Source: Lophium mytilinum
Taxonomy: Eukaryota
Assembly: GCA_010093605.1 (NCBI GenBank)
Contig: MU004192.1
Span: 194,882-258,881, forward strand
Direction: 5' to 3'
DNA: 64,000 bases
This document shows, in pieces, positions 1,491-40,072 of the stretch. The first letter of the stretch is position 1. Each line of letters starts with the position of its first letter. The translations under genes and the position numbers were made by a program. The notes under the pieces are model-generated. The model worked only from the letters and a program-made list of their open reading frames with translations. It ran no database searches and was not told where the DNA came from.

Positions 1491-1520
1491 TAGCCCTCCC
1501 GCTTAATACTATAGCCCTGC

Positions 1521-7840: not shown

Positions 7841-7845
7841 TAACC

Positions 7846-14000: not shown

Positions 14001-15234
14001 GAAAGAAGGTATTATTAGTAGAATTATAATTAGGGTATTTATCTATATATAAATTATTAGGTTATCCTGCTAATACTAATATATTCTATTAGACTTAAGC
14101 TTTAAAATAGGTAATTCGCGTTAAGGCCTATTAGTATTTAGCTTCTAGGTTATTAAGCTAAAGGGTTTAGGCCTAAAAGTTGGCGTACTTTTTATTATAT
14201 AGGCGGCGTACGCAAGCTAACTCTATTTATTTAGACTTAAGTTTATAGTTAAGGGTGCAGACTTAGGTCTAAAGTTTAGTAAGTTTACTATTAGTAAGTA
14301 AATACTTCTTATTTAGCTCTTTAATAGTAGTGTTGGCAGCGTCTTATTCTTATATAGTAATATTTATTTTATACTTATAATTATTACTATCTTAGTAAGC
14401 TATTATAATGCGGTTCTACTACTATTCTAGTATAAGTTAAATGTCTTTAATAAGATTCTATAGAACTTATAGTTTATATTACTAGTAAACGCCTTCTCTA
14501 TAGCGCATCTTAAAGATAGAGCTATTTATATACTAGGTAATTATAAGATATAATTATTAATAATCCTCTACGCGTATTATAGTCTAGTGTCTATTACTCT
14601 ATTCTATGCCCGCTACTTACTAGGCTAGGTTAGAAGTATCTAATCTAGTAATAGATTTAACGCGGGTAGATTAGTATTATAATAGAGATATATTAGGTAA
14701 GGGGATACTATAAATAGATAGTATTCTTAGATACTTAGAGTTACAGGACTAATATACTTTAGAAATAGTATTATAGTACGCTATAGCTTTAGAAGTATTA
14801 ATAGTAACACCTTAATATACTATCTTAAGCTTATTTACTTTATTATCTTTATTATTACTAAACTAATATTTCTCCTCTTAATAGTCTTATTTATTGGCTA
14901 AGTTAAAGTTAGAGGAGAAGCTATTATTATAGGTAGTAGTTATATTATTAAGGCCGGTAGTTATATTATTAAGTCTATTAGATAAATTAAAGTTGCCTAA
15001 TATATAGCTACTAACGCGGGAGAGCATTAGGAATTTCTAAATTAAGAAACGCGCGGAGAATACTAGTTACTTACGTGACCTTCTAGAAGACTACGCATTT
15101 TGCCGCTCCGCGGGCTTTACGCTACTCTATAAAAGTTTGCCTACTTCTTGCGCAAAATTTGCGCGCAGGCTGCGCAGACAATTTTTAATTATAGATAATC
15201 TAGCATTATGGGCAATTATTACAGTCAATAACTA

Positions 15235-18200
15235 CTTTATAGTCCTTATAAATGTAGCTATCCACCTCCTCTATCTAACCTTCTAAAACTGCCTAATCCG
15301 CCTGGGTTGCAGATAGATAGATAACAACGTAGATGGGGCCTTATACACTAAATACATAATTATCGCGTGCAGTAGAAAATTTAAAGTTGCACTAGTATAT
15401 CTAGTTGTCCCTTCTTACTACCTCCGCTAGGGCTTTATAGTCTACGGCAACTTTGCATGTATTATAGACTTTACGCGTTGCGTAGATAGTAATGCCTGTA
15501 TATATTTCTAAGGATTGCGTAACTATTACTAACCTTAATAATTTTAATATCCTAGTAGACTATTAGAGCTAGCAACGCGTGCGCTAGACGTCCGGGCTAG
15601 GGAATAGCACGCGACATGCATGTTGCGCGTTAGATAGTAGACTATATAGTAATTTAGGACGCATCTAATTACGGTATATATATTGCAAAATAGAAAGATA
15701 ACGCTAAGCATAAGATAGAGCCTACTTACACCCTATTTACTAATTCCATGCTACTATTCCTTATCCCTAATACTCTTAAGCAACTCAACAACTAGCCGCA
15801 GGCTTTCTTCTCTAGAATCCTGTGCCTTAACGCAGGCAGCTATAAACTTTTAATATTAGTCCTTATTAGATACAATTATAGTATTATTTTTATACCAGCC
15901 GCATTTATCTTTCTTTATATAGAACTGCTGCCTAAATTACGCAAATAAGAGATTAAGAGGGCACCGCTTCTAGCAGTCCTTTATTTTAATACTCTCCTTG
16001 GCCTCCCTATAAATTAGAGCTAAGCGGTATAAGTTATTATCAGTAAGGGGCTCTATATTATTAATCTTGTTATTCTATAGTTAATATAATTAGTATATTA
16101 TGCTTTAGCTCTCTACCTTATGCAATTACCTACACTGTCCACAATATCTAATAAAGTGTCCCTAAGGGGGGGGCTAGATAGAATTAAACGCGGTAAGGAC
16201 GAGTACCTAGAGTTAAATAGTTGTACTTCACTCTTAATGCGCTTTATTAGCGCACGTGTCTTCTCGCGTCAGTTAATAAGGTTCCGCTGCCGATCCCGCT
16301 CCTTTGCTTCCATTCTCGCCACCCTCGCGGTAAAGGCCTATTATTGTTCCAGTGTCATATCTTTAGTTAAATTTAATGCGTTGTGGCGGTTAGAGTCATT
16401 ATATATATCCTTGTTGTCGTCTTCTTTATAGTTTATATGCCAACCTACCCGTTTTATAATAAATTCTTGCCAGTAGGATAATAGTTAGTGCTTGCGGCGT
16501 AAGCTAAGTGCCCGCCATTAGGCGAGACATTTATTATAATTTACTACCCTAGCTTATAGTTAGCATAGTCTTGTATAAGGGGGGCGGTAGTTAATACTAG
16601 TAGCGGCGACCCCGTAAATTAGGTTTATGCGCTTCTGGCCCGAGGTATATTCGCTAATGGCGTGGTAGAGGCAAGTACACACATATGTAATAGTATCGCC
16701 TAAGAGGGGGTTAAAAAACTCTTTTAAGTATCTTTATATCCCTAAGGCGTTTATAGACCGTCCTGTAAAGAGTAGGTCTGTAACTACTACCTAGATGGCC
16801 TTAGCTATAAAGATTACTGGTGGCCCCTATAATCTATTAGAATGCTGTCTAACGCTAGGTTAGTAACTAACCTTAGCTTAGTCTTTATCTGCCCTGAAGA
16901 GATAGTTCCAATCCTTTATTAGCGTTAACGCGGTGCCGGCAATATCTAGAGTTATAGAACCGAAACTATAGTATTCTCGCACAATATTATAAGCAACCTT
17001 TATTGCAGTATTACAGAAATAACTAAAAGCGTTATAAATCTAGGTTATATATTATAATTAGCCATTATATAAGGTTATAGGAGTGGGGAGAGAGTAACGC
17101 ACCTTCCGCGCGCAAAAAGGGTCTAGAGTAGTAGGGACGTTAGCTTAAGCATAGAATAGTTAGTCTTTATAGACGTCTGCCTATATTTATATTAGCACTT
17201 GCTAAAATATATCTAGCCTAACACTCTTAGTCTAGGCTATAAGGTTGTTGCCGTATTCTCTAATTACGTTGGTGCCTAACACTATGCTTCTAAGTATCTA
17301 GTATCTTATTTATTCTTCTACTGCCGTGTATTTTACCTCTATAGTTAGTGCTTTAGCATGCCTATCTACGCCATCCCATATCTAAATTATTTTACTGCGT
17401 TATTTTATGCTAAGGAAGCTAATGCGGTTATAGACGGGTGTGCCTCTACCCGTGCCTAAGAAGCGGCTAGTAGAAGAGAAGGATGGTAGACCGCTTAACG
17501 CAAAGGTATTAGACCCAGTTATTTAGTTAACGGCCCTGCGGGCTTCTATCCTAGCCGCTATCTTATCTTGGACCACGGCGGCACCCTAATAGGTATTTAT
17601 TAGTATACACTGCTTAGTAGAGTGGCCGTAATATATATATAAGCTAATCTTACGCTTAAAGTCTATTTACACGCAGAAGTTAGTATTACTAGATTAGGAG
17701 ATAGGCGCGTGCCTGTCCTCGTCCTCTATACCGCGTTTTCTCTTTCCGGCAAGAGATAAGGTGCGGCTAGACGGCCGAGATAATATGGCATTACTATCTT
17801 AGAATGTCCTAGTAGTGCATCCTCTTTTACTTATTAAGTTCTATATATTTGTTATTAGTCGGCAGGCGTTAGAGTTAAGGAAGCTAGGCGCGTTACCGTG
17901 TCGATTAGTTTTAAGGCAGCGCGTTTTTACTTCTTCGCCATCTATAGTTATACGCGTTAGCTGTATATATATTAACGTATACTATAGATAGGGTATATAG
18001 TATAGCACATTTAAGTTATATAGTAAGTCCCTATTTAGGGCAGAGAGAGATAGTCCTATATTACCTTTTACTATGTTTAAGTAGGTAACATTAAGCCTTA
18101 CTAAACAATAGATAGGGGGCGTGTGGTAAAAGAACGTTCTATTTCTTAAGGCAGAGTGCGAGAATAATAACCATAAAGGGAAGTAAAGCAGATTATAATT
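15235..18200 (-). pseudogene. Cargo gene relic, multi-exon, with DUF6532-like domain
   Basis: Reads IFIAKAI*VVVTDLLFTG...EFFNPLLGDTITYVCTCLYHAISEYTSGQ (core at ~16,638-16,686), resembling the DUF6532 pattern AlvctAi..aL.Ew.tG. Several GT..CTAAC..AG-type introns. Ends approximate. Confidence 0.6.
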
Positions 18201-18499
18201 AAGCAGCGTAGAGAGAAGGGAATAAAGGGGGAGCAAGTTGCGCGTTTATTATAACAGGATGTAATAGAGCTAGCCGGATGCGGTCCACATGCGTTAACTC
18301 GGCGTCTTTAGCCAGTTATATACCTCTTCTCTATCCCCCCCTTAATAAAGCCCTATTATCCTATATAATTAAACACTTCTATCTACGCAATTACCTCTCC
18401 TATTATATTGCCTTAGACTAGAGCTTGCACTTGCGCACTTGCGTTGACTTCCACTAATCGCCGCACGCGCGCTGCCACCTCCCGCTATTATTCCTGGAT

Positions 18500-19220
18500 A
18501 GCATCTCCTACGCTGTTAGAATAGTGGTTAGTTAAGAGATTGTGGACTTCGCGTTCTACATTATTAGATAGATGGCTGGCCAAGTTAGAGGCCCTAATAG
18601 AGGTATTAATATTATAACGCGCAGCCGTCCCCTTATCGCTAACTTTATCCCCGGTTAGGCAACCTACTCGGGCGCAAATAACCCGCTAGCTATCTCCTCC
18701 AGCTATAGTATATGTCCCTCTTCTACATTATTAATAATAAACGCCTCTGCCTTCGCCAACTAAATCGCGCAACCTTAAGCTATTGCATCCTCCTCTCTCT
18801 CGGCCTAAAACACCCTCTTTACTACTATTCGGGCCTTCTTTCTACAATTCCAGCCCTCTATTAGTCGCTACGCTGTAAGCAGTTATACACTATATTGCAG
18901 GGTACTCCTCTATAGTAAAGAGGTCCCTAGATAGAAGAATAGAAGGGCAGTCTGCTAGCAGCGAATTCCCCCCCCGTGGGATCTATATACCTGGTTAGGA
19001 CGTTTAGCCGTATAGCTACACTTCTAGTTCTAATAATAGCTATAGTTTAGACAACTCTATACCGCCTATATATAGGGATATTAAGCTATCTATATTCTAG
19101 TCTAGTAAGACAGTATAAGGTTATAATAAGGCCCCGCCTCGGGGTAGTATAGTCCTAGTCTAGTTCCCTCGGCAAGGCGGGCTGTAGAATAGTCTAATCG
19201 CAAATTAGGTTGGCTAGGTA
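18500..19220 (+). pseudogene. Cargo gene relic, Pro/Ser-rich hypothetical protein
   Basis: Frame is open apart from RIP-type stops. Short GTAAGC...TGCAG intron at ~18,875-18,900. No domain recognised. Confidence 0.4.
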
Positions 19221-19389
19221 TATAGACTCTTGCGCTGTCTAAGTTCTCTGCCTTTTATAGTTCCGCACTCTTATCTCTTGTATAACTCTTATATTCTTTT
19301 TAACTTTTTCTACAGCTCTAATTTCTTACTTATTTATCTTATTGCGCAGGTGTTTATAACTAGCAGAGGCTAATATAGGTGTAGGTAGA

Positions 19390-20215
19390 AGGATAGCACA
19401 GTACTAGCTAGGGTAGATAGGTGCGGGGGTGTCGTCTATCTATATTAGCTATATTAATTAAAATCGTCGCATATATCTAATATACTATTTAGCTAAGGCT
19501 TAATAATTAGAGTAATATAGTCCGGTTCTCTTAATAAACTCTAATGCACTATTACTATATGCCAGTCTACCTTATTCTTAACTAGGAACTTAAGATTATC
19601 TATAATATAGTAATATATAGTTTCGCGTCCTATATTAAGACTAAATATTATATTTAACCTAGTAACAAGCATACTAAATTTAGGGGCCGGCATTACTAGC
19701 ACACTCTTTAGCAGCGTGGGTGGTGCAAGTTTATATACTAGTATAATGCGGGCGGCCTTACTACCTAGCCGCTTTACTAATATTAACTTTATTCCTATAT
19801 GCGCTGAACTGCGGTAGTATTTAGGGTGCGGCGAAGTTCTATTTTATTCGGCAGGCGGAGTGTCCATAGAATCGGAATAACAAGACGCGTTAATGTAATC
19901 TCGTCTTTTCTTATTATAGTTGCATCGCTGTGCGAGTTTTAACATCCACTTGTATCCTTCTTTAAGTGGAACGCGCAAAAGCATCTTAGGGAACTTCTTT
20001 ATAATATCTATTATTATAGATTATACTATCCCCCTAATTATCTTTAAGTAGAGGAATCCGCCTAGCAGGTCTACTAACTTTATCTTAGTCTCTATTACGG
20101 TATATAGCGTATTATATTCGCGGGCGCTAATATTAAGGCCCTGCATAAGCTTATTCCTAGAGTCCAGCTTAAGGTTATTAGGCATTAGGGACTAGCCTTG
20201 TTCGTCTAACAACAT
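19390..20215 (-). pseudogene. Cargo gene relic, hypothetical protein
   Basis: ATG at 20,215: MLLDEQG*SLMPNNLKLDSRNKLMQGLNIS...KWMLKLAQRCNYNKKRR. Long frame broken mainly by CAA/CAG-derived stops. Confidence 0.55.
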
Positions 20216-20669
20216 AATAGTTTAACAATTCTCGGGGTGCAGAAGGGGTAGAAAAGGCAAAGTTGGAGTTAGTTTATGTACGTGTTCGGACGATAGAGTA
20301 CCGAGACTAGACTCTTATTGCGTCTGCGTAACCAAATTAGCTACTTTAGCGGTAACTATTTTACAGTAATTAATAGAATACCTATACTGCCTCTTCTCTT
20401 AAGAAGAAACTAAAGCCCCTTCGCATTAACAGCAACCTAGCATTTATTAAGTTGTTGGTGTAAGATCTAGATAGTTTAGTATTGGGCTAAAAATTCTATA
20501 TTTTATGCTGCTGCCTAATATATTTATGCATTTAAGTGTTAGAGATAATTGTAAATAATGCTCTATTATTAACTATTACTATGTAACGGCCCGGTTTATT
20601 TATCTAAATGTATGCTTAGGCGGTGCTCCCTTTTTTATAATTATTAACGTTATTATAGGGCGCCGTTAT

Positions 20670-21530
20670 AATGCTTTAGGGCTTTAGCTAATTATATATA
20701 GTGTAGGAATACTAATATTATAAGAGTATAGGCCTACACGCCTATTTTAGGATACTCTTATTTAATTTATATAATAGCTAGGACTAGGGATATATACTTT
20801 CTCTAGCAACTTAGATATATTAAGAAGCGTAATAAATATAATAGTGTTTTAGAGTATTTTCTAAATTAAGTAGAAAGGTTACAAATAGATAGCGTCTAAA
20901 TTAGCTATAGAGTGGCATGTGAACGTATTATACTATCTTAAAACTAACCTAACTTGTCTCTACATCTAATTAGCCGTGGTGTTGGTAGTATATTAAAATA
21001 TAGGTAGCTAGAAAGGGCTTAGCATTAGTAAGTGTATACTTTTCTACCTGTTTTCTTTTAGCTAGTATGTATATACGGCACTAAATCGTACTACTACAGG
21101 CCTATAGTATACTCTAATTTATAGGCTACTCTATTTAAATCTCTTTATTAGGAATATAAGTAAGATTAGACGCATACTAGCTACTAACATCCTGCGGTCC
21201 AGATTAGAAGGGTAGGATAGAGGGTTCTTGCGACCTTTCTATGCCTTATAACGTGCGAGAATATTACTAACAACACATGCGGGCCTACGGAGCATCAGCG
21301 CCGCTATATAGATATTTACCCATATAATGCTATAGTTTATATCGCTAATACTTAGGCCTTAAATTGCATTTAAGGCTCGCACTGCTAATACCTAAGCCTT
21401 GCAGCAAGTATATAGTTAAGTAGATTATATTAATATTAAAAACGGACAGTCTACAGCAGACCTACTATAGATATAGTATACTTATTAACGCGGCGATTAC
21501 AGGTGTATTATAGAAGTAGAAGTTAGAATA
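20670..21530 (+). pseudogene. Possible cargo gene relic, hypothetical
   Basis: GTAAGT...TTTAG intron at ~21,028-21,061 with coding-like frames on both sides. Heavily interrupted. Confidence 0.3.
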
Positions 21531-21599
21531 GTTTATTTTATAATGTCTGCTATAGAACTATGTGCACTATATAATTAGTGCATTTAGCAGTTACCTTAG

Positions 21600-24500
21600 T
21601 ACTAATAGTTCCTTAGTTTTCCTTCTTTTTTAGTACACTTCGCATAACCTTATACGTAAACTTATTATTATTAACCGCACGGGACTAAGCTAGCGCATCT
21701 GCTGGGTTGTTACCCCCTATATAGGCGAGAATAATGCCGCATGTTCCGTTGGACCTCTAGTTCTTCCGCCACACTCTAGATATAATCTATACCTTAAGGC
21801 TAGATGCAGTCTATGGCTCTATAACTATCACGCACGTGCATTAAAAAGCAAAGTTGGAGCCTTCTACTCCTCTAGTCTTCCGGTTCGCAACTAGAATATT
21901 AACGGCCGCTGGATCATCTTAATTACGCTTAAAGCCGGTATTAAATTGCTCCCGTTACTTAACTATTAGCAATAAATGTAACCATGCGAGCTTTTTAGTT
22001 AGCATAGTCTTTATAATTATCTAGTATTAATTATATTAGTTTATTAGATAATAATCGCCAATTATAGATAGAGATGGGTAGCAACTTATAATGCAGATAA
22101 CTAAATTAACTATAGGCTCCTCGCCGACAATTAGTATCTTCTTCTTCTTAGCTTAAATGTGTCGAACTATGCTCCTAATCTTCTTTAGCTTCCCCGAATT
22201 GGCTAGTAGGTTAGTGTACTGTTTAGTGAGGGTACTCTTAGAGTCTATATAATCTATCTAGCCCGCATTTTTAATGTCTTCTAGAGTAAAGGTTGGGTTA
22301 CTTATTAAGCTAAGCTCTTCCTATCGCGTTTTTAACTTAGCCAGCCCAGGAATTAATACAAAAATCCAGGGCAGCCTCCCCTTGCCCGAGCCCGTTAGGA
22401 AGGCGCCCAGGCTAAAGAAAGGCGGCGGCTTATTAATTGCCGCTCTATACCTTAGCTATTCTTTATACTCTTCTTTAAGGTCTATATATCTCTCTCTAAT
22501 AACCGTGCAGTACTCCTTAATAAAGGGTTTAAAGTAGTTAGGTGTACTAACTATTACCTGCTATATAATATAGAGCGGCATATCCCCTAAGAGAAGGCTA
22601 TCTAGGCTAAGGCTTATTAGCATTCTGCGGATGCTTATAGCTATAATTACATCTAACACTCTCTAGAGACGCCCAGACAATTTAGAATTATTCTATAGTT
22701 ACCGCTCTTTCTCTATTTTTAAGGCAAGGTAGTAACCTCTAGCCCCTATAAGGTCTTCTTAATTAACACGCCGGAGGGTAGGGCCTTAATAAAGAACGTT
22801 AAACTTATCCCCTTTATCTATATCCTCTTCCTCTAACTCCTTATCTAGAAGAGTATTATCCGGGTCGTCTTTAACATCGGCGTCTAAGTTAGTTAGGTCC
22901 GCCGTCTAAGTTGGCGTCTATAAACCTCCGTATAGCATAACTATTAGATATAATAGAGTTTTAGGGCCGCGGAGAAAAGGAGTCCCGCTATAGAATAAGC
23001 CTCCGGGGCAACTGTACGGATCAGCAGCCTTATTAAACCCTTCTAAGTTCCAGCCCCAATAAACCCAATTAAGCGCACGGTTAATATTCGCCCATTTGCG
23101 CGTAGTTAGGCGGAATGCATGCCGACACTATATAGACTTAATATAGCTAAAAGCCGTAATATATAGAGACGTATTATTAAATCCTAGGTGGAACTTGTTA
23201 AAAAAAACGGCCCCACATATATATATAGGGGTTACTTTATCGCCATGCAATAGGTTATAGAATATTATAAAGGTCTCTAGCGAGTTTAAATTCTTATTAT
23301 ATTTTTTATTAAAGGTCTCCGCGCTTATAATAATAAGATAGGTTTTCGCTCTTAGATTTAGCTTATACCACACCCGACCGTTTATTTCTTAGTGGATAGG
23401 CCTAAGGTTCTTCTAGTCTTTAGAAGTAAGGTTACCCTCCGCAATACTTCTATATACACGCCGGATGTAAAGTCTTTCGCCGGGGACCTTAAAATCCTTA
23501 TTCTTGCATTTAACATCCAGCCAGTATTTTGCCTCCTTATAGGTCTAATTTAGCAGACTCTTCTTAGTAAGCTAAATAACGCAGCCTTCAACGCTGCTAG
23601 AACGCGGAGCATTAGTGCTAGCCTCTCTAGCATAAGTAGCGAATGCTATTAATATTTGCAGAGTTTTTCCTATCCTAGGGGGGTCTATAAGAATTAGCCC
23701 ACGCGCCCTGCCGGCGAGACCTTAGATAATGCTGTATGTCCCGGCTACCTAGTATAGGGCCGCACATATCTTTAGGTTAGTAGTTATTCCTAGCAGCTTA
23801 AAGGTTGCGTTACTAGAAAAATTTCTATATATTAGAGGCAAACTAAAAAACTATAGCACCTTCTTAAACGCTGCCACTAAGATATTCTTTATAGAGCTTA
23901 ATGTCAGGGCTATCGCAGCAGTAATATTAACAGCATCTACCTTCTCCGCGTTAGCCGTAATTATCTTGTTTACGTCTATAGAGGGTCTAGTCTCGCTAAG
24001 ACTATATATATTAAATTTAAGCGTGGCCGCGACATTAATGCTGCTAATTGCTATATCCCCCGCGACTTAGGTATTGCTGGGGATAGTCTAGCCGCTCTCT
24101 ATAGCGACCGCAAGCGCATAGAGTTGTTTTTAGGCAGTTAGGTACTAAGTAGTCCTAGGCCTAAGCGCCCTAAGCTACTATATAACCTTATTATAGACAA
24201 CACTAGGCTAAATAGGATCGCGCATTAACTTAGCATATAGCTAGATAATGTCGAGCATCTATTAGAGTAGTCGCGCTTTCTTCTCTATTTATAGCTTCTG
24301 TGCCTTCTTCTCTACTAGTAGTTTCTACTTTCTTTATTCCTCTTGCTCCACCGCCTCTTCTAGCTGTTCCTGCCTCTTTACTTTCTCTTTAGTCGCGGTC
24401 TCGGCCAGCTCTCTCTCCTTCTATTCTGTCTGCTTCTTAGCCTTCTCCACTATCGCTGTATCTACTAGCTCTCTCTCCTTTATCTCTTTCTCCTTTATTT

Positions 24501-26007
24501 CTTTCTCCTTCCTTTCTTTCTCTACTTTCGCTGTTTCTGCCAGCGCTTTCTCTGCCAGCGCTTTCTCCGCCAGCTCTTTCTCCACCAACTCTTTCTCCTT
24601 CTTCTCTTTCTCTTTCTTTTCTCTCTCTGCTTTCGCTGTATCTGCCAGCTATTTCCACTTCTCCCCTTTATCCTGCTCCGCGGTGGAATTAACTCTATCT
24701 ACATCGGCCACATGTACGTATAGACTTATAGTTAAGTTAATAATTATTTTATCTAGAGCGTTGGCGGCGGTGGGTTTAGGTAGACCCTTAGCCGCGGCAG
24801 CCTTAGGCTTACTATAGCGGGGGCGTTTCTTAGCCGGGCGGATACTAGGGGGCGAGGACTTAAGAAAGTGCGGACCTAGCTATGCATTAGTTAGTGGTAA
24901 TGTTTAATAATCAACAATAATTAACGTACGTCTAGTCTTAAGTTTAGACATCGCCTCCCTAATATTAAGGCCCTTTACTGTAAAACTAAGCACTATCTCT
25001 TTAGGTATACTCTTTATTTCCTCTAATAGCGTAGTTAGATGGAAGTTGTTCTCTATTAACTCCCAGGTTCCATTAACTACAACAACGTGCTCTAGAGGGT
25101 TGAAGTCTGCGAAAGTTCCGTTAATGGCTTCTAGAAACTTTGCAAAGCTATAGTCTTCCGGCTCTAGGCCTTTGCCGCTAGACCTTACAAGACGGAGAGT
25201 AAAAAGGCGTCCAGTGCTTTCCCGCTGCGGCAGCTAGTATATTATAGCGAGGACCGCGTGCAACAGCCGGGGCTTAAATAGGGTATTTTAGGCAGCGACA
25301 TCTAGGGATTTTATTAGAGAGCTAAGGCCTGCTAATGCAACCAACTTCGCGGATAAGGCCGACTTAGACCGCTTCCGCTTCTTATTACTTTTAATAATAC
25401 TGCCCCGTATCTTATATTTCTTATAGACTTTATACTAGATTAATATCTAATACGCTCGCTTCTACTTAGCTAATATAGAAGACTTCTTAAATATGCAACT
25501 CTATATATCTATAAAAAGTGTATATATTTTAGACTAAGCATCTAAGTAGGCGTTATTCTTACTATAGTTATTTTAGCCTAGTTGCAAGAGACGTTTTACC
25601 TGTAGGTACGCTTCGGAGTTCTCTATTAGCATAAATAAGTTAGCTTCTATCCAGCGCTACACCTTAGAAGCTAGACCCAAGCCGGCCATAATATTTATTT
25701 AACTTAAGTAGCCTTTAGGGTTCTTAGTAAAATTAGATGCCGCCTTGCTCTGCATAGTTGTGTTGCGTAGCAGGTCTACTAGGGGTGTTACAGCCTTCCC
25801 CCAAGCAGGTCTAGAGCGTTGGCAGCTGCTGCGGGGAGGCCGGCGGCTGCGGCGGTTATCTAGCTTATCTAGCTCTGAATTGCTATTATAGTCTACTTAA
25901 CTAGAGTCTATGCTTAACGACTATTTATCTAGGTTAAACTCCTTGTTATTTTAATCGTCGGGGAGGCGTTGTTGGCGACTAGTGCGTTGACCCGATCCTT
26001 TAGCCAT
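21600..26007 (-). pseudogene. Cargo SNF2-family (SWI2/SNF2) ATPase/helicase relic with long N-terminal extension and E/R/K-rich linker
   Basis: Motifs in order: LY*VAG, GLILIDPPRIGKTLQ (Walker A, 23,656-23,700), VFFNKFH (=DEFH, ~23,188-23,208), YSGTPF (~22,975-22,992), SIRR, SGKLKKI, KKILIVGE, ILVANRKTRGVEGSNF (~21,850-21,900), *IISRVWRKN* (=QxxxRxxRxxQ, 21,757-21,789). ATG at 26,007. Introns near 24,880-24,930 and ~22,020-22,090. Confidence 0.88.
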
Positions 26008-26749
26008 GTCGGGCGAACGAGATAAGGAGTTAGGGTGTAAGGAAGGCAGATAGGAGGGGGCAGGGTTAGTAGATGGAATGGCGTTGTGCGGCGATGCGGG
26101 CGAGGGCGGGCGGGAGGCTAATAATATTAGATAAACAGCGATAGTAAGTAATAAGTAAGGTAGTTACTTACCTGCAAAGTTATAATAGTAGACGCCACTC
26201 GCAGTGCAATTAACCTTGGGATCGCGCGCGTTAAAAAATAAGGTAACCGTAGTAGAAGATGTATAAATCCGCGCGCGCTAGTAATAGGAGCAGCTACTCT
26301 TAGTTGTACTTTTAAATAGGTACAACGTCTATTAAAGAAGTACTTATAGAGCGGTACTAGAAATACAGCAAGCGCAGGTAAGCCTAAGGCGTAGAGAAGA
26401 AAGTTAGCGTATAAGGAAGGGAGGAGAAGAAGGAGAGAGAGAGGGAAGAAAGAGATGGAGGAGGAGGAGGATGAGGGAGGGAAGATAGGTAAGAATAGTA
26501 GATAAGAATCAGAATTAAAAGGCCGGACAGAAGGTAAAGTTTAAAGTGGCGCACGATTAAGTGCGTAATTAGTAAACGGGCCGTGTTATAATATAATAGA
26601 AGTAAAGAGTTATATAGCTTAAAAAACTCCACCACCCGATAATTAGTAATAATTGGCCTCTACCTTAATATTTATCTACACCTATTAGCTTTTAGTAACG
26701 CTCAACAGATTAGCAATAACTTCTACCTAATATTGCCTTCTACTTGCCC

Positions 26750-29700
26750 AGGTTGGTTAATATAGGGAGGAAGGCCAATTTCTATATATAGGTGCCCCCC
26801 CCTATTATTTAAGTTGGCGTTGTAAGCTCTACTAGATTAGCGGCTAATAGGTTAAGGTCCTTAGAATAGAAAGAGAAGTTAGCCGCAGCTACCTAAGGAG
26901 GTACTGTGCTGCTTATTATCGCCCGAGCTGCTGCGCGCCTCTCTACCTCTAATAGCAGCTCATTGTCTACTAAAGTTGCGCCCTATAAGCTAGCAGGTAG
27001 CAGTACTAATTTATACGTCTTCTTACTATCTGCCCTTCTTATAAGTATTGCTAATTTAGCTTATACTACGGGATAGCTTACTTATCTACTCCCTCCCTTG
27101 CTAAACAAGCACCCTCGCCCTTTAGCCCCTCTGCTAGCGCGCACACCGCCTCTATATAGAGAACGCCTACTTTAACCTGCCCGGGAAGACTAGCGTTACC
27201 CACCCACGTATTCACTATACTCCTCATCCGCTCGCTCGCCCCCGCCGGCGCTAGGCTAACCGTAGTCCGCATTTAACTAGCCTGCATATCTCTCTCTCTT
27301 AAGGCCCTCCGCTGCTCCAGGCGGCGCTTCCTAGAGGCTCTACTTAGTAGTTCCCGCTCTCTCTCTATCTCTCGCAGCTCGCGCTCTAACAACCAGGTTA
27401 GCGCGCTCCTCCTCGCGGATTTAGCCTTCCTAGAAGTAGTAGGATTGCGCAGTTATATCTTATAGGCCACGCCTCTAGAATATATATAGATTAGCAACGC
27501 TTAGGTTTACCTATTGCAGTATGCTATAAGGCTAACCCTTAAGTATAGCTTAAAATTAGCAGAGGCAGGTTAGAAGCGGATAAGAAAGATAATAGGGCGA
27601 TACTTAGATATTTAGGGGACCAATTAACTGCTATATAGTACCTGCATCCTACTAGGTAATTTAGCCATTAGATGCGCGTTTAGATAAAAGCCTCTTAACG
27701 TAACTAACATCTTACCAGACGCAATAGTACTTAGTCCTAATCTAATTATTAGCCCGACGTTATACTAGCCTTAACTCTAACCCTCTAGAAGGCAGCTGCT
27801 GCTATAGCAACTTACGCCTTCTATAATAATAGCTAATATACCACCGGCGCATATTAGACTAAAGCCCCAAACTCTTCTAATAACCTACTCGCTATTAAAT
27901 TACGGCCTCTCCTCTAACCCTAACTATTTTGTTCGGAATATAAGCGTATCCACCTATACTAACACCAACTAACTATTTAAATATGTTGGGCCTAACAGCG
28001 ATATATAGTCTAGAATAGCAAAGGCCAATACACTTTAGATAGAGACCGAGCAGTAAGTCCAGCTTATGCGCGGTAGTACCTAGACTTAATAGACTAATCT
28101 ATATATAGAGAGGTTGCTGCTAAGCCCTTCTTCTAACTCTACTCTAAGGGCGCCGACTAATTCTTTAATCTTCTATATAGTATACGCGAAATCTTAGTTA
28201 TAAGGGATAAATTAAATAAACCACAGGGAGCGGAACTTAAGAAGATACTCGCTACTTAAAAGACTATAATATAGTCTACTAATAGGTCTAAGTCTATAGT
28301 AACCTTTAAAGAGAAATATAGCAACCTCTAAAAGCGCTAGAGACATACTAAATACTAACTTAATTCTATAGCAAATATCCTAATCTTAGAAGGCTAAATA
28401 GGGGCGATAGACGCCCACGCCCTTACTATCGTTCTGACAACTATGCCTAATGCCACCCGTGCGGTAAAGCTTGCTAAGGCGCTATAAGACCGAGAGCTAC
28501 TAAAGTAAGTTGCAATTAAGTGCCAATTTAGGATCTCTACTTAGATGCGCCCTGGCCTACCTACTAATATACCGGGTGCATAATAGTGCACTTGCTCTTA
28601 TTATTTTAATCTAGACACGCGTAAACTATAAAAGGTGGCCTCTATAAATAAGCCTAAGTACCGCTGCGACCTTACTATTAAGGGCACCCTTAAGGTCCTT
28701 AAAATCCTAGAAGAACACCTACCGCCCTTATTTAGAGGCCAGATAATTAGGTGCAATACTAACGCGACCGCTAGCAAAGAGCTGGCGGAGGTCCCTATCT
28801 TCCTCGCTGTTATTCCAACCCAACCGGCCACCCCCGCTAAGCTAGTAGAACCCCGCAAGAGGTTAATATAGAACGCCGTTTACTATGTAAGGGTCTAAGA
28901 CGAGCACAAGTCTTATATTAGTCTGCCTCGGGATCCACGTTCTAAATAGCGTATACCTATTATCTCGCACATAATCTATAGAGGATTAGCTAATGGAAGT
29001 CCAGCCTTATAAATATAGCTTATATTTATAGTTCTAGTGTTTAGATTACTATATACTAATAAGCTATACTAGATTGCATTCTACAGCCAAGCGGACTCTC
29101 TACTTAACACTATCTGCACCGATAAGAAGTTTAAGGCTATAATAACAGACAGTTTCGCCCGGATGCACCTAGTTATATCTGCGCTAGATACTCTAGAGAA
29201 GTTAGCGTCTACAGAAGTATAAGCCGGAGAATTTTACAGCCTTAAGTAGCCCCTAAACCTACCGTAAACTACACCCCCGCTCCTAGAGTTATAGAAGGCT
29301 AAACTTCTTACCTAAACTAACCTGCCATTTATTAGAATTGCAGAGCACCTACTAGTGCCCCGGCGTAACTACTATACCTACTCTTCTATTAATACTCTAA
29401 GCAAGTATATAGACCTAGATTATATTCTCTATTTTAAGATTACCACTCCTAATATAGAGGAGCAAAGTCTAGATAATAAGCGCCGGCATACTACTTAGAC
29501 GGTACATAAAAACATCGCCCGGCGTACTATACTAGTTAACTTATTATAGAAACGGGTTAACGCCTAGACTTATAAGGAGTTTTATAAGGTATTATATAAT
29601 GCAGCTGCTAAAATACTCGCAGTGTTACCTATAACGCTAAATATAGTAAATATAATAAATAATATAGTAGAGGGCTTTATAGACGCAACTAAGTCCCTTC

Positions 29701-30615
29701 GCATATATCTAGATTAGCACCGGGTTCTAATAATAGAGGATTATACACCGCTGGAGGAACTATACGCTATTAACATTTCCCACTAAGGCCGCTCTAACCA
29801 GTTCCTATCCCCGTTTAAGTTGGCACGGGTTGCGGTTAAGCGAGTTTACGACTTTAAGATAACTGGCAGACCGGGAGGGCATAGTAAATACAACATTAAG
29901 AATATTCTTAGGTACTACGCTAAGGTACTAAATGAGTTTAAGGCTGGCCGGGCCAAGGCTAGCAATAGTGCGGAGGGGGATAAATGGGACGCCGCTAAAG
30001 TCTACTATATTAACAGTCTAACCTTCTATATAGACCGCTACACGGCTAGAGGTTTTACTACATTTATCTAAGAACTAATTGCTAACAGCACTATTAACTA
30101 TTGCAAAGTAAGCAGCTATCTAGTGGTTAGCTATTACTACTCCGCCTTTAGCTATAATGGAAGCAATAACTTCTACTCCAAGTGCAATACTAGCAAAGAT
30201 AATAACACTAACCGAGACGGTACCTATACGCTACACTCGGGCGACGATAAATTAATACGCCGGTGGCCAACTATCTTAGATTGCATCCACGAGGCTATTC
30301 TAGACCTTAAGGACTGCGCTGGGCTCCTTAACAGAGATAGCAATAGTGGCAACAACTTAAACGCGCAAGATAATTGCGGACTATAGAATCCGCGCAAAGA
30401 TAAGCTTAGCTAGAGAATGCAGGACTATATAGCTAAAGCGTCGGCTAAAATATAGTAAGTAGTAGAGGGCTACTACAATTAGGAATAATCGACGATAATT
30501 AAAAACAATTAGACATCCTGCGGGCGGCCCGGGTAGACTGTAGTATAAGAGTTGCTGCTAGCACTAGTTATAGGCGCCGGCGACTCGGACGGGAGGCAGC
30601 ATCCCCGCCACTAAT
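26750..30615 (+). pseudogene. Large cargo gene relic (>1,000 codons), unknown function
   Basis: Continuous coding-like frames that join ORF-track pieces 28,635-28,871, 29,820-30,071 and 30,123-30,386. Interrupted by RIP-type stops and short introns (~27,656-27,718; ~29,031-29,072). Start approximate. Confidence 0.6.
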
Positions 30616-30769
30616 TTAGAGGTATTAGTAATCTAGAAGTCTTCTATATCTATATACTTAATTTAAAACACTAAGTTATTATTATATTTACTATAGGTTG
30701 TACACGTAAATACTAGATAGTAATATGTATAGCCTATAAGCTAACATCTTTCTAGGGCTAAATATCTAC

Positions 30770-31600
30770 TAGCCTAATTTCCAGCACCATTAACAAGGGC
30801 TTAACAATTCTTTAGCTTCCCTGTTGACCCGGTATAGAATAGGGCCTAGAGTTTCGCCGGGGTGTTATTGTAAAAGTAGCTAAAGGACTTAACCTACTCC
30901 TAACGGCGCGGTATAGACTATTAAAGGAAGGCTTAAGCACTCTTATAATCCGCAAGAAGATAGTCCTCCGCCCTTGCCACTTGCTAGTCCTTGTAAGTCG
31001 TCTACTCTCCATCCACCTTATCCTTATTAAGCGCAGTCGTCGCTAACGTGCATGCCGCTAATTCTGCCGCGTGCAAGAGGCTTAAGCGGCCAAATTAGTA
31101 ATGTTGTAAAACTCCCTGCCTAACCAGCGCCTCCCAGCTATTATCTAATTTTGCGCCGGCCGAGAGAGACGCGGAGTTTAACCTGGGCTGCTTAATGCGC
31201 ATCTAATATTACTATCTCGCAGCCGTTCTATAACTAGCACTTACCCCAGCGGCCGTCTTCTTAATAACGCCGGCACCCTTAGCGGATACCCGTTAACTCT
31301 GTTCTACTGGACTAGTAATGCATCGCCGCCCAGCGCTCGCCTTGCGGAAGGGAGTAACGCGCTTAGACTTAGTATCTTCTTCTGTGTTGCCTGGATAGCA
31401 CTCGCCTAGAGTTAAGAGTTCTTTACTGTGGCCGGTAACTGCGGCAGGAAGTTAGATACTAGAAATTAGTAAGAGGTAATACTTACTTTTAATACACGCC
31501 GTGCTATTAGGACTAGGGAAACTAGATATAACTGCCGGTACGCGCTTAAAACTATATCTACTATAAAGGTTTATGCTAGCTATAAAGGATATAGAAATAA
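30770..31600 (-). pseudogene. Cargo gene relic, hypothetical, divergent from the transposase
   Basis: Two GTAAGT introns (~31,460-31,486; ~31,204-31,244) joining open frames such as MRIKQPRLNSASLSAGAKLDNSWEALVRQGVLQHY. Confidence 0.5.
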
Positions 31601-31749
31601 TAGAAATAATTGCGTACGGGCTTTAGAGTTACGGTTTAAGGGAGTAAGCCGTAGTCTTTAACGCGTAGATGCGTTAAGGTTCCGGGCTAATAGAATAGCC
31701 CGCCCCCTATTAGAACGCGTCGCGTGCTATTAAAGAACGATAAGTGCTG

Positions 31750-34700
31750 CATACTAGCCCATAATCTAATATAATCTGCAATAATCGCTCGCAATCTATA
31801 AGTTTCTACGTGGGGCCAACTAAATTTAACTAGAAATAGGGTATATACCTTCTACTAAATATAGACACTGCTATAAGTTGTTCTAAATACTTAGCGCCCT
31901 AAATAAATATATACCGTGCTGCAAAAAGCTCCTTAAGATGCTGCAGCGGGTCCCGCTCGCTAATACTAGGACTACTAGATCCGTAATCTAGTCTTGCATG
32001 CTCCGCGTTATTTAGATAATAGACGGGATATTATTTAGAACGCCTAGATTGCCACTAGTAAGTCTACCCCTACCAGCCAACCCCTATAATAAGATAGAGT
32101 ACAAGATAAATAGAATAGAGCTATATATCTCCAGTAAACTAGAAGAGTACTAGAGTCCGCCTTCTATAAATAGAGGCCCTATAAGCTTAATATACAATAA
32201 CCCGCCGGAGGCTGCTAAATTCTGCGTTCCGCACTAATAAGGCCGACTAATAATATCGTCCACATTATTGCTATAAGAGGAAGTATATCCCTCTACTAAA
32301 TTAGGCATGCCCGCAGGGGCGTCTATTAGACAGGCCGATGCTAGATAGTAGACGTAAGTATTATTAGGGACCGCTATCCCCCCCGCCCGTAAAGGCGGCA
32401 TTAGAGCTTACTAACCGGTTGCTCTATTATAGGGACTAATCCCCCTTCTATCTATTCTAATCGGCGTTTAACCATGCTTTTATATTATAGCTTTAGTAGA
32501 TTGGCTGCACTAAGAATAATATTAACCTGCTGTTTAATAACATCCACCTTAAGAGCACGTTTTCTAACTCCCTTATGTTTACATCGGGCGATTTATAGAA
32601 CAGTAAACTAGAGGAAATTAGATACGGCGTTAGCAATACTAACTATATAGTGGAGATGCTGCATTTCCCAAGTAAAAAATAAAGCTTAAGCGGAGAGTAG
32701 CATCCGGTGTACTACTTTAATATAATAGTAGCTATATTATTCCTAATTAGATACCGCCCTTTCTATAATTACCTTATATTTATACTAGTTTAAGTCTATA
32801 ATATAGAAGGCCGGCAGGTATATACTAAGTTGCATACATTAGACTAGTAGTAGTAGACTTAGTTAAAGCTCCCAGCGGGGGCCACGGTAATACCTATCTT
32901 GCTCTCCGCGGACGAGATATAGCTTACCTAATATCGCGGCGACAAGAGCGCATAGCCAGTCTATCTAACTATTAGCAACCTAGATAGGACCACGCGGCGC
33001 TTAAACACGTTGCCTGGCACCCTACTACTAGGCTTTATACTAAGCACGGCGGATAAAGGAGACTACCTAAAGCATTAGCTGTACTATAGCTCTTTAGGCT
33101 ACATTCTTAGGCATTAGTAAAATTCTTGCCAATACTAAGCGGTTTTCTAATATAAAATAAGCTATTATAGAACATACTACTAATAGAATTATACTAGAAT
33201 GCAGGGATAGTAAGAATTAAAGGTGCTATCCAGTATTATGCGGAATTATAGCTAATTATAAAGAATAGAGCCTACTTATAGGTATTAAATTTAGAAAACA
33301 CTGCACTATATACTAGGTACCATCACATTAACGCGAAGACCTAGAGACTAAACACGCCGTAAGGTCTTACCGCTTAACTATTATTTAGATTAAATAGCAA
33401 CGCAACAACGAAGAGCGTTTAAAACTTCTGCTAAATAAAGCGCTGCGCAACGTAGAGGCTATAGAGCTTAATATAGAGTTATACGTACATTCTATAAATA
33501 ACTTTACCTAGAAATACCCCTATACCAACATCCACTAAATAATAATAATAGATATCCTATACTAACTATTTACGGGCGTCGTTCACGACCTTATTAAATG
33601 GGTCTAGCTACTAGTGGCGGAGGTCTGCACCCCAGCAATTAGAAGAAAAGATGCCCGTGTCCTAATAGAAAACGAGAGCGGCTTAACCTAGCTAGACGAG
33701 CGATTTAAGGACGTGCCGCCTTTCCCGGGTCTATCTACATTTAATAAGAAGAATTTTAGCAAACTCTTGTAGTATACTAGCTCTAAATAAAAGTCTATAG
33801 CCCGCCAGCTTATAGTAGTAGTAGCACCGCTGCTAGAAGTAAAGGCACTAAACGCGCTCCGGTTTGTCCGTGCAATACTTAATTTTACTATTCTAGCGCA
33901 GTACAAGATATATAACGAGGCCACGCTAGAGTATATAGAGCTGGCGATAGCTTAAATTAATATATATAAGTTAGAATTTAGGACATTTAGACCTAGGGAT
34001 AAGGATAGAAACTACGCCTTCTACTACCCGAAATTCTACATTATGCAGCACTACGTTGATTTTATACAGAAATTCGGCGCCATTAATAGCTATAACACCG
34101 GCTTAAATAGCAAAGCAAAACACCAACACCTAGTTAAATCACAGTATTAGTTAATAAACTATAAGAACTTTCTACCCTAGATCTGCCAATTAAACTAGAG
34201 ACTTATAAACGACCAGGCCATAAACAATATACTAAACTACCAACATTACTATCCTTAACTAGTAGCGATAAGAGACATGCTAATGCGATAGATAACAGTA
34301 TTAGAAAGTATTAATATCTTAAACTTTAAATGGCCTGGATACAATAATTTCTATAAAGGCCGAATAGTGCACCATCTAAAAGTAAGCGTTAAGTACATAG
34401 CTAATATAAGCCGGGAGCCAGACTTTATAGCCGCCGCCGCCGTGTTTATTTAAGAAGAGAGGCGCAAAATCCAAGGCTAATATACTAAGCCTAGCAGCCT
34501 AGATATATTAGACCCTAATCTATTCTAGGTTAGCCACCTCTAGCTTAAGTTCCACGCTAGTATTTCGTGTTGGAAGCGATTAGGTGCTAGCGAGGACCTA
34601 GAAAGCCTTATAAAAGAAAATCTATAGTGCAACCCTAAGTAGTAGAACTAAGAATAGTAACGCAACTATCTATAGGTGCAAGAGTATAGCTTAGACTATA

Positions 34701-35329
34701 CTAAAAACGGGAAGACGCGCGTTAGTATTGCTAACAGGAGGTTAGTAGGGTAGCTACAATTTATAGTAACTATTATAGACCCTATTCTAAAGGGTAAAGA
34801 TACTCTATAGGCGGCACACTCTAGAGTTTTTATTCGCCTTCTAGCGCCAATTAATAATGGGAAGCTACATTACGTCCATGGCCTGGTGGAGGTAGCTTCT
34901 TAGGCTTCTAACAACAGCCGCCGCTAATAAAAGCTAGGAGCATATTAATTCTATCTACTGCCATAAGTCCTCTAAAGTGCACACGTTATACCAGCTACCT
35001 CTAGCCTAGACCCCACCCGTTTTTTTATTAATAACTATATTAACTGGGATTAATATAATACACTCTATACAGAAGACTGGAAGATAGAGGCGCAAGAGGC
35101 AATGAGGTAGTACCGGCTTAGCGGTCGCGCTAAAGAGATTAAAGCTGCCCTAAGAGTTAAAGACGCAGCGGAGATTTTAGTAAAGCGCGTAAGGGCAAGA
35201 GCACTTACTAACGCCTCTCTCCCGCAACTAAGCCGGTAAACACCAAGAAGCAGCACAGTAAAGAGGGGCCATGGCACCGGCAAGTAACAGCGTAGGTAGG
35301 AATAAGGCCGCAAGGAAAGACGTCCTTAA
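31750..35329 (+). pseudogene. Plavaka-family (CACTA/EnSpm-like) transposase relic with N-terminal C2H2-like finger
   Basis: VYTKLHTLD****T*LKLPAGATVIPILLSADEI*LT*YRGDKSA*PVYLTISNL (~32,818-32,982, =DWWWxTQ..LP.GAT..P....D.TQL...G...AWPVYLTIGN). CYPVLCGIIANYKE* (=ADYxEQ, ~33,225-33,268). DILY*LFTGVV (=DxLHQ, ~33,551). LDERFKDVPPFPGL. PKFYIMQHYVDFIQKFGAINSYNTG...KH (~34,028-34,125). SAHVIP...FFINNYINW near the C-terminus. Confidence 0.93.
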
Positions 35330-35619
35330 TTTTTCCCCACTATTAAGAGATAATTAAGCATTATTTAGCTTTATTAACCTCCAAGGCCAATTAACGCAAG
35401 ATAATAACCGCGTACTTTCCTGTATAATTTCTATAAAACTAGGTAACGCTAGTATACCCTACTAGCGCTGCCTTACTTTACTTTTTAAAATCGCACGTTG
35501 CCACCTTTACCTATTTCCCTTTACTAATGACGGCCGCCTAATTAAATTTACCGGCTACTTAAACTCACCACCCCCTAATTACTTTCTTTCCTTAATACTT
35601 TGCAGCAATTAACCCTAAA

Positions 35620-36780
35620 TAGCGCCTATAGTAAGCATATTATCTATGCTAGAGGTTCTAGGCTGCGGTTAAGTTATAAACCGCTTCCTAGTGGGTTAAC
35701 ACCGCGAGACAGAGGTGTAAGGTGTAGACCTTAATACACTTAAACTATACTTACCTATTCTAGTCTAGTTGGACGCGGACAAACCTCTCTCTAAACCGGG
35801 TCGGGACTATAAGATACCCTCCGCCTTCGCTAGAGCGTACACGTCCGAAGAGGGGGATATCTTCTACCTCCGTAACTTTAAGCATGTTAGTAACAACACT
35901 CCGCATTTTAGCCCTATTAAACTAACACCCGCAAGCTATATAACGTCCTGGCCGACAATACTAAGCTAATAGAATAAGCGTTTTATTAATTAAAGCTGCA
36001 CCCATCTATACGCGGTTGGAACGCAATCCTCTTATAGCCCTACGCTATAAAATATAATACTAAGATAAATCGTCTAGAAGAGTCGGCGAGCATTAGCCTA
36101 CTTAAAGAGGTAAGTAAGCACCCCCTCTCCTACAGATACCTGCTAATATAATATCCCTTTTCTAGCTGTTTAGGTAATGCTGTTAAGACTCTATTGTCTA
36201 TAATGCTTACACATACGCGTTACTAGGTAAGATGCTAACCTTTGCCCTCCTAAAATTCTTCTATATATACGGTCGCGTCTACTATATAGACCTAAACACT
36301 AATAAATACTTTAGCCTATAACTATTATCTCCTGCTATAATATGCATAGATTGCGGATCTGCTGGCCTTGCAGACAAGTGCACCGGTCCAGACCCGCTCT
36401 AACTAAACGCAGCTAACTAGTTAATAATACTTTAAAACCTCTTAAGCAACATCTACATGCAATATGTTATTAACCATAAATAATAGTTAGACCGTAACCT
36501 ACTAAAGCCTTTTAATCTAGAGGACTTTTAGCACTTAGTTAATCTATATATAACGGAACTTACTAACTACGGAACTAATTTAGAGATAAGCGAAGCATTT
36601 AAGTTGGAATTTAAGCCTAATGCGGATGACACGGAGAAGAAGGATACAGAGACGGAGGCAGGCGAGGTAGGTAATACTAAAGCGGAGACGGAGGCAGACA
36701 ATACAGAGACAGAGGACAGCGGGCAGAAGGCTCCTCTTAAGCGTGCTTAAGTTACATAGTAGGCGGTATATATAGTTAGT
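35620..36780 (+). pseudogene. Cargo gene relic, hypothetical, with acidic E/T-rich C-terminal tail
   Basis: Includes ORF-track piece 35,769-35,969. GTAAGT intron at ~36,110. Tail DDTEKKDTETEAGEVGNTKAETEADNTETED. Confidence 0.5.
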
Positions 36781-36999
36781 CTAGACCCCTAAATATAGTA
36801 GTTTATCCTATAATAGCGTCTATATTTAAGTATAAGGCATAATAGGGTTTTAAAAATATTAATACATGAGTTAATTACTGGCAATTTAATTTTTCTTGCT
36901 ACCCGTGCGCTTAACCCTTCTCTTTCGTAGATTATTAATTATAATTAGAGATTATGTATATCTCCCTTTTATAATTAGAGTTAGCCCGCTACTTATATT

Positions 37000-39240: not shown

Positions 39241-40072
39241 GAACTATGCAAGTCTACCTATATATACTCCCTATATGCCTTCTATACCCTCGCGCTACTA
39301 CTAAGTTAACTTTTAATAGATATGCAGCATGCATATATACCTTATGTCTTAGAGCCTATCCCCGCCCTAAGCTCTAACTTAGAAACTGCTTATCTGCCCA
39401 CTTCTAATATAAACCCCCTAAACTGCACGCGCTTAAAAACACTACTAGTCTTGCGACACCCATTTAGAGATGTTCTATAGTTGCGATATCTAGCGCGTTA
39501 AGCTATAATACAAGGGATTAAACCTAAGGCCAATTAAGAATAACTATTAGTAATAATAGCGCACTACCGTAAAGACGCACTTATATAAGATTCTAATAGT
39601 GCACTTAAGGGAAAAGTATGCAGCAACCGTTGGTTAAAACACGTGCGCCTAAGCCTTAAATTTCTAGCGCCTGCCCGTACACGTAACAGGACTGTTCTCC
39701 TCTATTCTGCGGGTATAAAAGCCTGCCCCGTATCTCTTTCTCTATGCCACGGAGTAGTAGGAGGTGGCAAGAGTTAAAAAGGTAGAAGAGTTATAGTAGA
39801 GATTAACTTAAGGCTAACTATTTAGAATATAGCGGGTGTTAAAATCGCGTACACTAATAAATTATAGTAGGGGCTAAAGCTAGCAGAAACTTGTCTAAGA
39901 CTCTAGAAAATAGAGAATAAGAGGCAGTGCGCGGGTATAGCTTACTAATAGTGTCTACTATAATAGAAAGCTAATAGCGCACTAATATCTAGGTTAGTAG
40001 TTAGACTAGCACGGTTCTGCAAAGCTATATTAGGCAAAGGTAATATACTCTAGCATCGCCGGCTTATATTAC

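Follow-up and report, generated by a model that had tools for sequence, protein, structure and literature searches.

Plavaka transposons belong to the CACTA/EnSpm-Transib group of DNA transposons, and fungal members carrying TET/JBP dioxygenase genes are known; the termini of Plavaka elements are terminal inverted repeats of the form TGT..ACA or CATCA..TGATG, with target duplications of 2-3 bp (PMC12730594). Here we describe a locus of the dothideomycete Lophium mytilinum at which the remains of a Plavaka transposase lie close to a gene of another kind. The window, by which we mean the whole stretch of 64,000 nucleotides that was analysed (assembly GCA_010093605.1, contig MU004192.1, positions 194,882 to 258,881 of the forward strand), contains a long reading frame damaged by repeat-induced point mutation (RIP), whose C-terminal part weakly resembles the ATPase core of SWI2/SNF2 proteins. 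The best explanation overall appears to be a Plavaka-type element with an SNF2-like accessory gene, a reading to which we give a probability of about 55%.

The TET/JBP-carrying Plavaka, KDZ and other fungal DNA transposons are comparable to this locus in that they hold an extra gene acting on DNA or chromatin, for which an escape from silencing has been proposed. They differ from it in the nature of the gene, which here is SNF2-like, no TET/JBP domain being found by Pfam, and in the host, the Plavaka families treated in the available portion of that source coming from Agaricomycotina (PMC12730594). The giant Plavaka elements of red algae possess the accessory genes PAG1-3, which comprise an adenine methylase with SET, a ParB with a 2OG-oxygenase and an unknown protein, and transposon accessory genes are called rare in the accessible part of the same preprint (bioRxiv 10.1101/2025.02.11.637652). 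They share with the present locus a very large size (17-19 kb there, ~27 kb here), several accessory genes and tandem repeats; none of PAG1-3 is an SNF2 ATPase, and in that accessible part SNF2 is mentioned once, for host gene families (bioRxiv 10.1101/2025.02.11.637652). Finally, Helitron, AcademH and KolobokH are DNA transposons encoding helicases; they occur in eukaryotes, fungi included, and, as is proposed for the element considered here, code for a transposase together with a helicase-type ATPase of superfamily 1 or 2. In the portion of the source at hand, these ATPases are PIF1 or DEAD plus Helicase_C proteins associated with other transposases, whereas the present case combines an SNF2-like protein with Plavaka (PMC10799480).

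The open reading frame (ORF) under study can be divided into the following parts:

21601..26007, minus strand: RIP-inactivated reading frame of 1469 codons, with an N-terminal part, an E/K-rich linker and an SNF2-like ATPase core
24664..26007, minus strand: N-terminal region, function unassigned (ORF residues 1-448)
24283..24663, minus strand: E/K-rich repeat linker (ORF residues 449-575)
21601..23787, minus strand: SNF2-like ATPase core (ORF residues 741-1469), with hhalign scores of 36.7 (C lobe) and 28.3 (motifs I-Ia)

From 26007 to 21601 the sequence is open as a single frame on the minus strand and no frameshift is required. The frame contains 61 stops, namely 23 TAA, 38 TAG and no TGA; the remaining two minus-strand frames over the same interval contain 145 and 170 stops. 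TAA and TAG are the RIP products of CAA, CAG and TGG, and the fact that all 61 stops are of these two kinds is a signature of fungal RIP. Because of its 61 in-frame stops, this copy is a dead pseudogene for which any function is excluded. The N-terminal part did not match any Pfam family at E-values up to 10. In the linker, 34 Glu and 31 Lys make up 65 of the 127 residues, tandem arrays with periods of 15 and 105 nt were detected at 24399-24649 by TRF, and this is the sole part of the ORF with matches in a phmmer search of 1.84 billion cluster representatives. A preliminary description of this DNA had reported RIP damage over the gene, a long N-terminal region of no recognised family and a charged repeat linker at 24,290-24,660, and all three observations agree with the stop codon usage, the high RIP indices given below, the Pfam result and the linker composition and arrays.

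That the gene lies in a repeat is confirmed by contigs from two sequencing runs on DNA of the same organism: 768 contig pieces from the first run (X1) and 696 from the second (X2) could be placed on 21601-26007 with an identity of at least 80%. Counted by kind of difference, the differing places in X1 were distributed as 109 C>T, 99 G>A, 16 A>G, 9 T>C, 2 T>A and 1 A>C, so that 233 out of 236 are transitions; at a given place up to 15 contigs carry the other letter (position 24772 in X2). The region thus occurs in many copies that differ almost only by transitions, and the copy of the window is among the least mutated, other copies retaining G or C at about 25 places. In addition, gene model P0003, located on another contig of the same species, matches the window in pieces at 27272-27087, 26360-26176 and 25029-24433. 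Taken together, the evidence for many copies covers 21.6-27.3 kb (21601-26007 from the contigs and 24433-27272 from the gene model). Among the copies, CpG dinucleotides are often changed at both letters, to T and A, as at 21641/2, 22125/6, 23170/1, 23241/2 and 23281/2. RIP in the L. mytilinum genome seems to hit CpG besides CpA, as judged from 40 of 259 table rows.

The window falls into a RIP-marked part, from 1 to about 45000, and ordinary coding DNA from 45000 onwards. In the former the TpA/ApT index ranges from 1.6 to 1.9, the (CpA+TpG)/(ApC+GpT) index from 0.05 to 0.7 and the GC content from 0.25 to 0.44; in the latter the GC content is about 0.52 and the RIP indices are normal. Within the RIP-marked part, a block of even damage includes the SNF2-like frame and two further RIP-damaged genes:

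15000..41750, no strand: block of even, moderate RIP (GC ~0.40), presumed extent of the element, borders approximate
32740..34300, plus strand: Plavaka transposase remains in two frames, RIP-damaged (PF18759)
16626..17048, minus strand: DUF6532 domain of a RIP-damaged frame read over 16200-17999 (PF20149, E 6.7e-9, 36.3 bits for a cutoff of 24)

The transposase domain was detected at 32740-33159 with an E-value of 2.9e-14 and 53.5 bits (cutoff 26.3), and again at 33401-34300 with an E-value of 1.7e-4. It is located ~7 kb from the SNF2-like ORF on the opposite strand, in a head-to-head arrangement. The frame with DUF6532 probably represents a further accessory gene of the element; in the literature searched, this domain is mentioned in a single paper. 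The borders of the block correspond to steps in GC content, which rises from 0.23 to 0.39 at ~15000 and falls from 0.42 to 0.29 at ~41750, and the flanks beyond are far more degraded; the (CpA+TpG)/(ApC+GpT) index is 0.47-0.71 inside the block and 0.05-0.25 in the flanks. Between 15 and 26 kb the AT skew is negative, and between 26 and 40 kb it is positive; its change of sign near 26 kb coincides with the change of coding strand and is consistent with two divergently transcribed arms.

Because of the even damage, the sharp borders and the layout of the genes, we regard it as rather probable, with a confidence somewhat above even, that a single mobile unit comprises both the transposase and the SNF2-like gene. 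Several results weigh against this assignment. Neither terminal inverted repeats nor target duplications were found near the GC steps, whether the search was conducted on the letters or on a purine/pyrimidine code; inverted-repeat runs of 15-18 near the steps are at chance level, and RIP makes short motifs uninformative. No alignment of the flanks of the block to an older repeat in uninterrupted form was obtained. The many-copy evidence given above covers 21.6-27.3 kb and does not reach the transposase, and no intact relative was found in which linkage to Plavaka could be checked elsewhere. The transposon-borne character proposed in the preliminary description therefore stands as regards the many-copy repeat, the head-to-head position with Plavaka and the even RIP block, but the element ends that would complete it were not found.

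These same results are those that speak for the most serious alternative, in which a genuine SNF2-like gene forms part of another mobile element, separate or nested, or of an amplified segment, and adjoins the Plavaka transposase within a cluster of RIP-mutated repeats. The lack of element ends and the restriction of the many-copy evidence agree with it, as does the nature of the interval 1-45000, which is entirely a pile of RIP-mutated repeats. The literature searched, which did not cover the original Plavaka and AcademH papers, likewise describes no Plavaka or other cut-and-paste element with an SNF2-type gene. Against such a juxtaposition, the RIP level is uniform over 15-41.7 kb and sharply unlike that of both flanks, the two genes lie head to head about 2-7 kb apart, and the AT skew reverses near 26 kb, as it should for two diverging arms. 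We therefore hold a separate element to be unlikely, although it deserves to be kept in mind, and retain a single Plavaka-type unit as the preferred reading.

Turning to the nature of the gene itself, the last 729 codons were compared by hhalign with a custom SNF2 profile built from 11 Mit1-type cores and 12 plasmid SNF2 cores. The motifs aligned in this region are given below, an asterisk denoting a stop:

23656..23688, minus strand: motif I (Walker A), IDPPRIGKTLQ, aligned with ADdMGLGKTiQ of the profile
23521..23559, minus strand: motif Ia, SLLN*TYKEAKYW, with a TAG stop at the profile W of 'NW'
23167..23208, minus strand: motif II, VFFNKFHLGFNNTS, placed by profile alignment and codons
22963..22995, minus strand: motif III, FYSGTPFLRGP, aligned with LTGTPveN, SGTP being undamaged
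22117..22200, minus strand: start of the C lobe, NSGKLKKIRS...KKKILIVGEE, aligned with SaKl..L..ll..l...g.kvLvFsq (the block preceding motif IV, and motif IV)
21757..21894, minus strand: motifs V and VI, LVANRKTRGVEGSNFAF ... VIVIEP*TASSLKV*IISRVWRKN*, placed by profile alignment

The codons of Walker A read DPP-R(AGG)-I(ATA)-GKT, in which R is turned to G and I to M by one G>A reversal each. Similarly, motif II reads N(AAC)-K(AAG)-FH and becomes DEFH by one G>A reversal per codon in two codons. Motifs V and VI are aligned with SlkAGG.GlNL ... DpwWNPave.QAtdRAhRIGQ, with TAG stops at the W, Q and Q positions; in IISRVWRKN (21831-21757) both stops are TAG and thus one C>T reversal away from Q. 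Altogether 5 stops fall on conserved columns, and Q columns take 3 of these 5, all three being TAG. At a loose setting, the alignment runs through YQ..G, GKT, NW..E, DExH, TGTP, LRR.K, S.KL, GG.G.NL and WNP..Q..R..R.GQ in this order. The SNF2-specific blocks and six motifs (I, Ia, II, III, V and VI) can thus be followed in order, either as such or after single transition reversals. It had previously been stated that all motifs I to VI could be read through the damage, with the unusual variants DPPGMGKT, DEFH and QIISRVWRKNQ. The three variants are recovered, a single reversal (G>A or C>T) being sufficient for every codon restored, and so is the series of motifs except for motif IV, which is degenerate (ILIVGE).

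The highest score was obtained for the C lobe (36.7, P 8.5e-4), where residues 523-680 of the core match columns 320-447 of the profile, a local match of 127 columns that starts with the S.KL block and takes in motifs V and VI. A second match, collinear with the first, covers motifs I-Ia (28.3, P 0.012). The scores of 70 residue shuffles all remained below 28.3, with a maximum of 21.6, and five other frames scored at most 25.3. A negative control was provided by the window itself, which further contains an intact superfamily 1 (SF1) helicase gene of the host and a canonical host SNF2 gene:

46004..48676, minus strand: intact host SF1 helicase gene (AAA_11 and AAA_12, E ~1e-22), located directly at the border of the RIP zone
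54153..59078, minus strand: host Mit1, the SHREC remodeller (Pfam zf-PHD-like, Chromo_MIT1, SNF2-rel_dom with E 2.1e-67, Helicase_C and zf-CCCH_6)

The SF1 helicase scored 22.6 against the custom profile, and the N-terminal 740 codons of the ORF, which are without SNF2 profile similarity, scored 15.8 at best. When the N lobe was searched alone, SNF2-rel_dom (PF00176) was the sole family retrieved from the 24736 Pfam models (E 0.19, 11.2 bits), and among the 5027 models of PADLOC the sole family was ZorD, an SNF2 helicase (E 0.053, N lobe). On these grounds the core of the ORF is very likely SNF2-like.

This assignment to the SNF2 family nonetheless rests on weak similarity, and a series of searches tell against it. 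The 11.2 bits of SNF2-rel_dom, seen with the N lobe alone, are below the cutoff of 24.9. The whole ORF, with stops read as X, matched no Pfam family; Helicase_C (PF00271) was found neither in 21601-22200 at E-values up to 10 nor in the whole ORF, and NCBIfam gave no match. Against the PDB, phmmer returned 9 matches at E-values up to 10, all of them antibody chains, and a second search returned 11 matches at E-values up to 1, none of which is a helicase. The 5 matches among the 1.84 billion cluster representatives all lie inside the linker and include no helicase. A word-indexed protein search with the ATPase part found nothing at E-values up to 10, a weak negative as the same search missed the transposase piece that Pfam recognises. 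We also counted conserved columns: 39 of 98 are identical and 16 more are transition-reversible. Controls made by sliding the sequence reach at most 14 identical columns; re-aligned shuffles, which form the fairer control, reach 36 identical and 41 in sum over 30 trials, so the real count is only modestly higher and deserves little weight. Moreover, masking of every RIP-changeable codon, which introduced 542 X into the 1469 codons, abolished the signal, and HMMER or hhalign scores did not rise with profiles derived from sampled variants in which transitions had been reverted. The SNF2 ATPase of the preliminary description is thus upheld by profile scores above those of the shuffles and by motifs in order, but without the Pfam thresholds being reached.

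One may accordingly ask whether the frame is another P-loop or superfamily 2 NTPase, or a protein that resembles the motifs by chance or through chosen reversals. The absence of significant matches in Pfam, NCBIfam, the PDB and the library of 1.84 billion proteins would be in keeping with this, as would the modest excess of conserved columns over shuffles and the fact that a true SNF2 signal is not erased by simulated RIP (see below); the Walker A form DPPG.GKT presumably also recalls SF1 and AAA+ proteins. Such a protein would however not be expected to give two collinear profile matches far above 70 shuffles and 5 control frames, nor to have an SNF2-type family as the sole hit in each of two independent libraries (Pfam and PADLOC). 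It would also leave aside the correct order of the SNF2-specific blocks TGTP, GG.G.NL, W..P and R..R.GQ, and the comparison with the host SF1 helicase, in which the match is limited to a 12-residue Walker A. We consider a non-SNF2 protein distinctly improbable and keep an SNF2-like core as the working assignment.

To what extent RIP accounts for the weakness of the similarity was evaluated by simulating RIP on the host Mit1 core, at the observed level and well beyond it (GC down to 0.26). The mutated Mit1 core still scores 167-314 against a bacterial-only profile, for which the ORF scores 29. Thus RIP, even in the heavier simulated form, cannot explain the weak similarity, which argues that the protein was very divergent from canonical SNF2 proteins before it was damaged. 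Simulated RIP also leaves 59-79% amino-acid identity to the native Mit1 core, so that a recent copy of any annotated gene would be detectable in the 1.84-billion phmmer search. Neither this search nor the word-indexed search of the ATPase part found an intact relative. The ORF and host Mit1 share an SNF2-type ATPase core with an identical order of motifs, and differ in that Mit1 scores 227.7 bits for SNF2-rel_dom and possesses PHD-like, chromo and CCCH domains, none of which was detected in the ORF by Pfam. A direct BLASTP comparison of the two gave no significant similarity (best E 0.46), and together with the simulations this bears out the earlier view of a divergent protein that is not a Mit1 copy. 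The alternative that an ordinary host SNF2 gene was recently captured or duplicated and then hit by RIP, as a one-off transduplication, is largely refuted and very improbable: CACTA-type elements are known to pick up host gene pieces and Mit1 lies 28 kb away, but the ORF has no similarity to Mit1 beyond the motifs, its ATPase part is unmatched in a library that includes the annotated proteins of L. mytilinum, and a recent copy would have kept the identity seen after simulated RIP.

Particular SNF2 architectures were also considered. For a Rad5/Rad16-like protein, with a RING between motifs III and IV, no Pfam family was found in 22201-22950 at E-values up to 10 and no Cys/His pattern is visible, with the caveat that RIP turns Cys codons into Tyr codons. 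For a JBP2-like fusion of a TET/JBP dioxygenase with SNF2, no Pfam family was found in the N-terminal 740 codons at E-values up to 10, the sensitivity being lowered by RIP.

The remainder of the block and its surroundings were searched for other genes and repeats. Of 53 stop-free pieces between 14.5 and 45.2 kb, 48 were submitted to Pfam, the other 5 lying inside the repeat linker, and a chance match to Tox-GHH2 (E 0.077) was the only result; 8 further low-stop frames gave DUF6532 alone. The Plavaka domain is preceded on the plus strand by a long, nearly stop-poor stretch of frame (28200-32700) that has no Pfam match; it may represent the N-terminal part of the transposase or a further gene. 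Short tandem arrays are present inside the right arm of the block or immediately outside it, at 38567-38726 (2 x ~80 nt), 40069-40212 (3 x 48 nt) and 42400-42533 (2 x 54 nt), and by analogy these may be subterminal repeats like those of CACTA-type elements. In the left flank (1-15000), repeats ~7.45 kb apart (3219/10675 and 4106/11559) and an 18-nt tandem array at 1495-1691 were observed, and a 202-nt piece at 7846 recurs at 42890 (42890-43091) with 91% identity. These flank repeats point to older repeat families on either side of the block. Besides Mit1 and the SF1 helicase, the ordinary part of the window encodes a SpoU methyltransferase of the host. The ATPase part of Mit1 shows 100% identity to a named L. 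mytilinum protein, in agreement with that species as host.

According to the favoured reading, the 15-42 kb block would be a dead, RIP-mutated copy of a many-copy Plavaka (CACTA/EnSpm-like) DNA transposon, probably of ~27 kb. The element would have carried its transposase and at least two accessory genes, one for the DUF6532 protein and one, transcribed away from the transposase gene, for a protein of ~1470 residues. The latter would have consisted of the N-terminal part, the Glu/Lys-rich linker and a very divergent SNF2-type ATPase core of two lobes. In active ancestors this ATPase may have been a motor moving along double-stranded DNA with ATP, which would have loosened nucleosomes for the transposase, either at the ends of the element or at target sites, or would have countered silencing by heterochromatin. 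The N-terminal part and the charged linker would then have served targeting or partner binding. The locus suggests an element that may once have carried its own chromatin motor, and the proposed role would parallel that of the chromatin and DNA-modification genes of other Plavaka and KDZ elements. MuB, TnsC and IstB are AAA+ ATPase partners of bacterial transposases, and VANC of the plant VANDAL elements is not an ATPase. None of them is of the SNF2 type, and the likeness would be one of role only, as element-encoded helpers for target DNA or anti-silencing.

The present case should be taken as a lead and not as a result: it concerns a single dead gene family of a single species, whose family membership is weak and whose linkage to the transposase is inferred. 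A broader and much more tentative proposal, which we regard as possible but doubtful, is that dothideomycetes held, and may still hold, a giant Plavaka lineage with its own SNF2-type chromatin motor. This motor would be far from every known SNF2 subfamily, with a long N-terminal part of its own and a charged, coiled linker; its gene would be transcribed away from the transposase, and it would open chromatin for excision or insertion, or resist heterochromatin. Within the literature searched, no other ATPase of remodeller type has been described among the accessory genes of eukaryotic cut-and-paste transposons, so that this one would be the first. Accessory genes are rare in eukaryotic DNA transposons, and those known, among them TET/JBP dioxygenases, SET and adenine methylases and VANC, point to a conflict over chromatin and DNA marks. 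If the present reading is true, the transposon toolkit would also include nucleosome or DNA translocation by a motor of SNF2 type carried on the element, and elements of this kind would be a source of very divergent SNF2-like genes in fungi.

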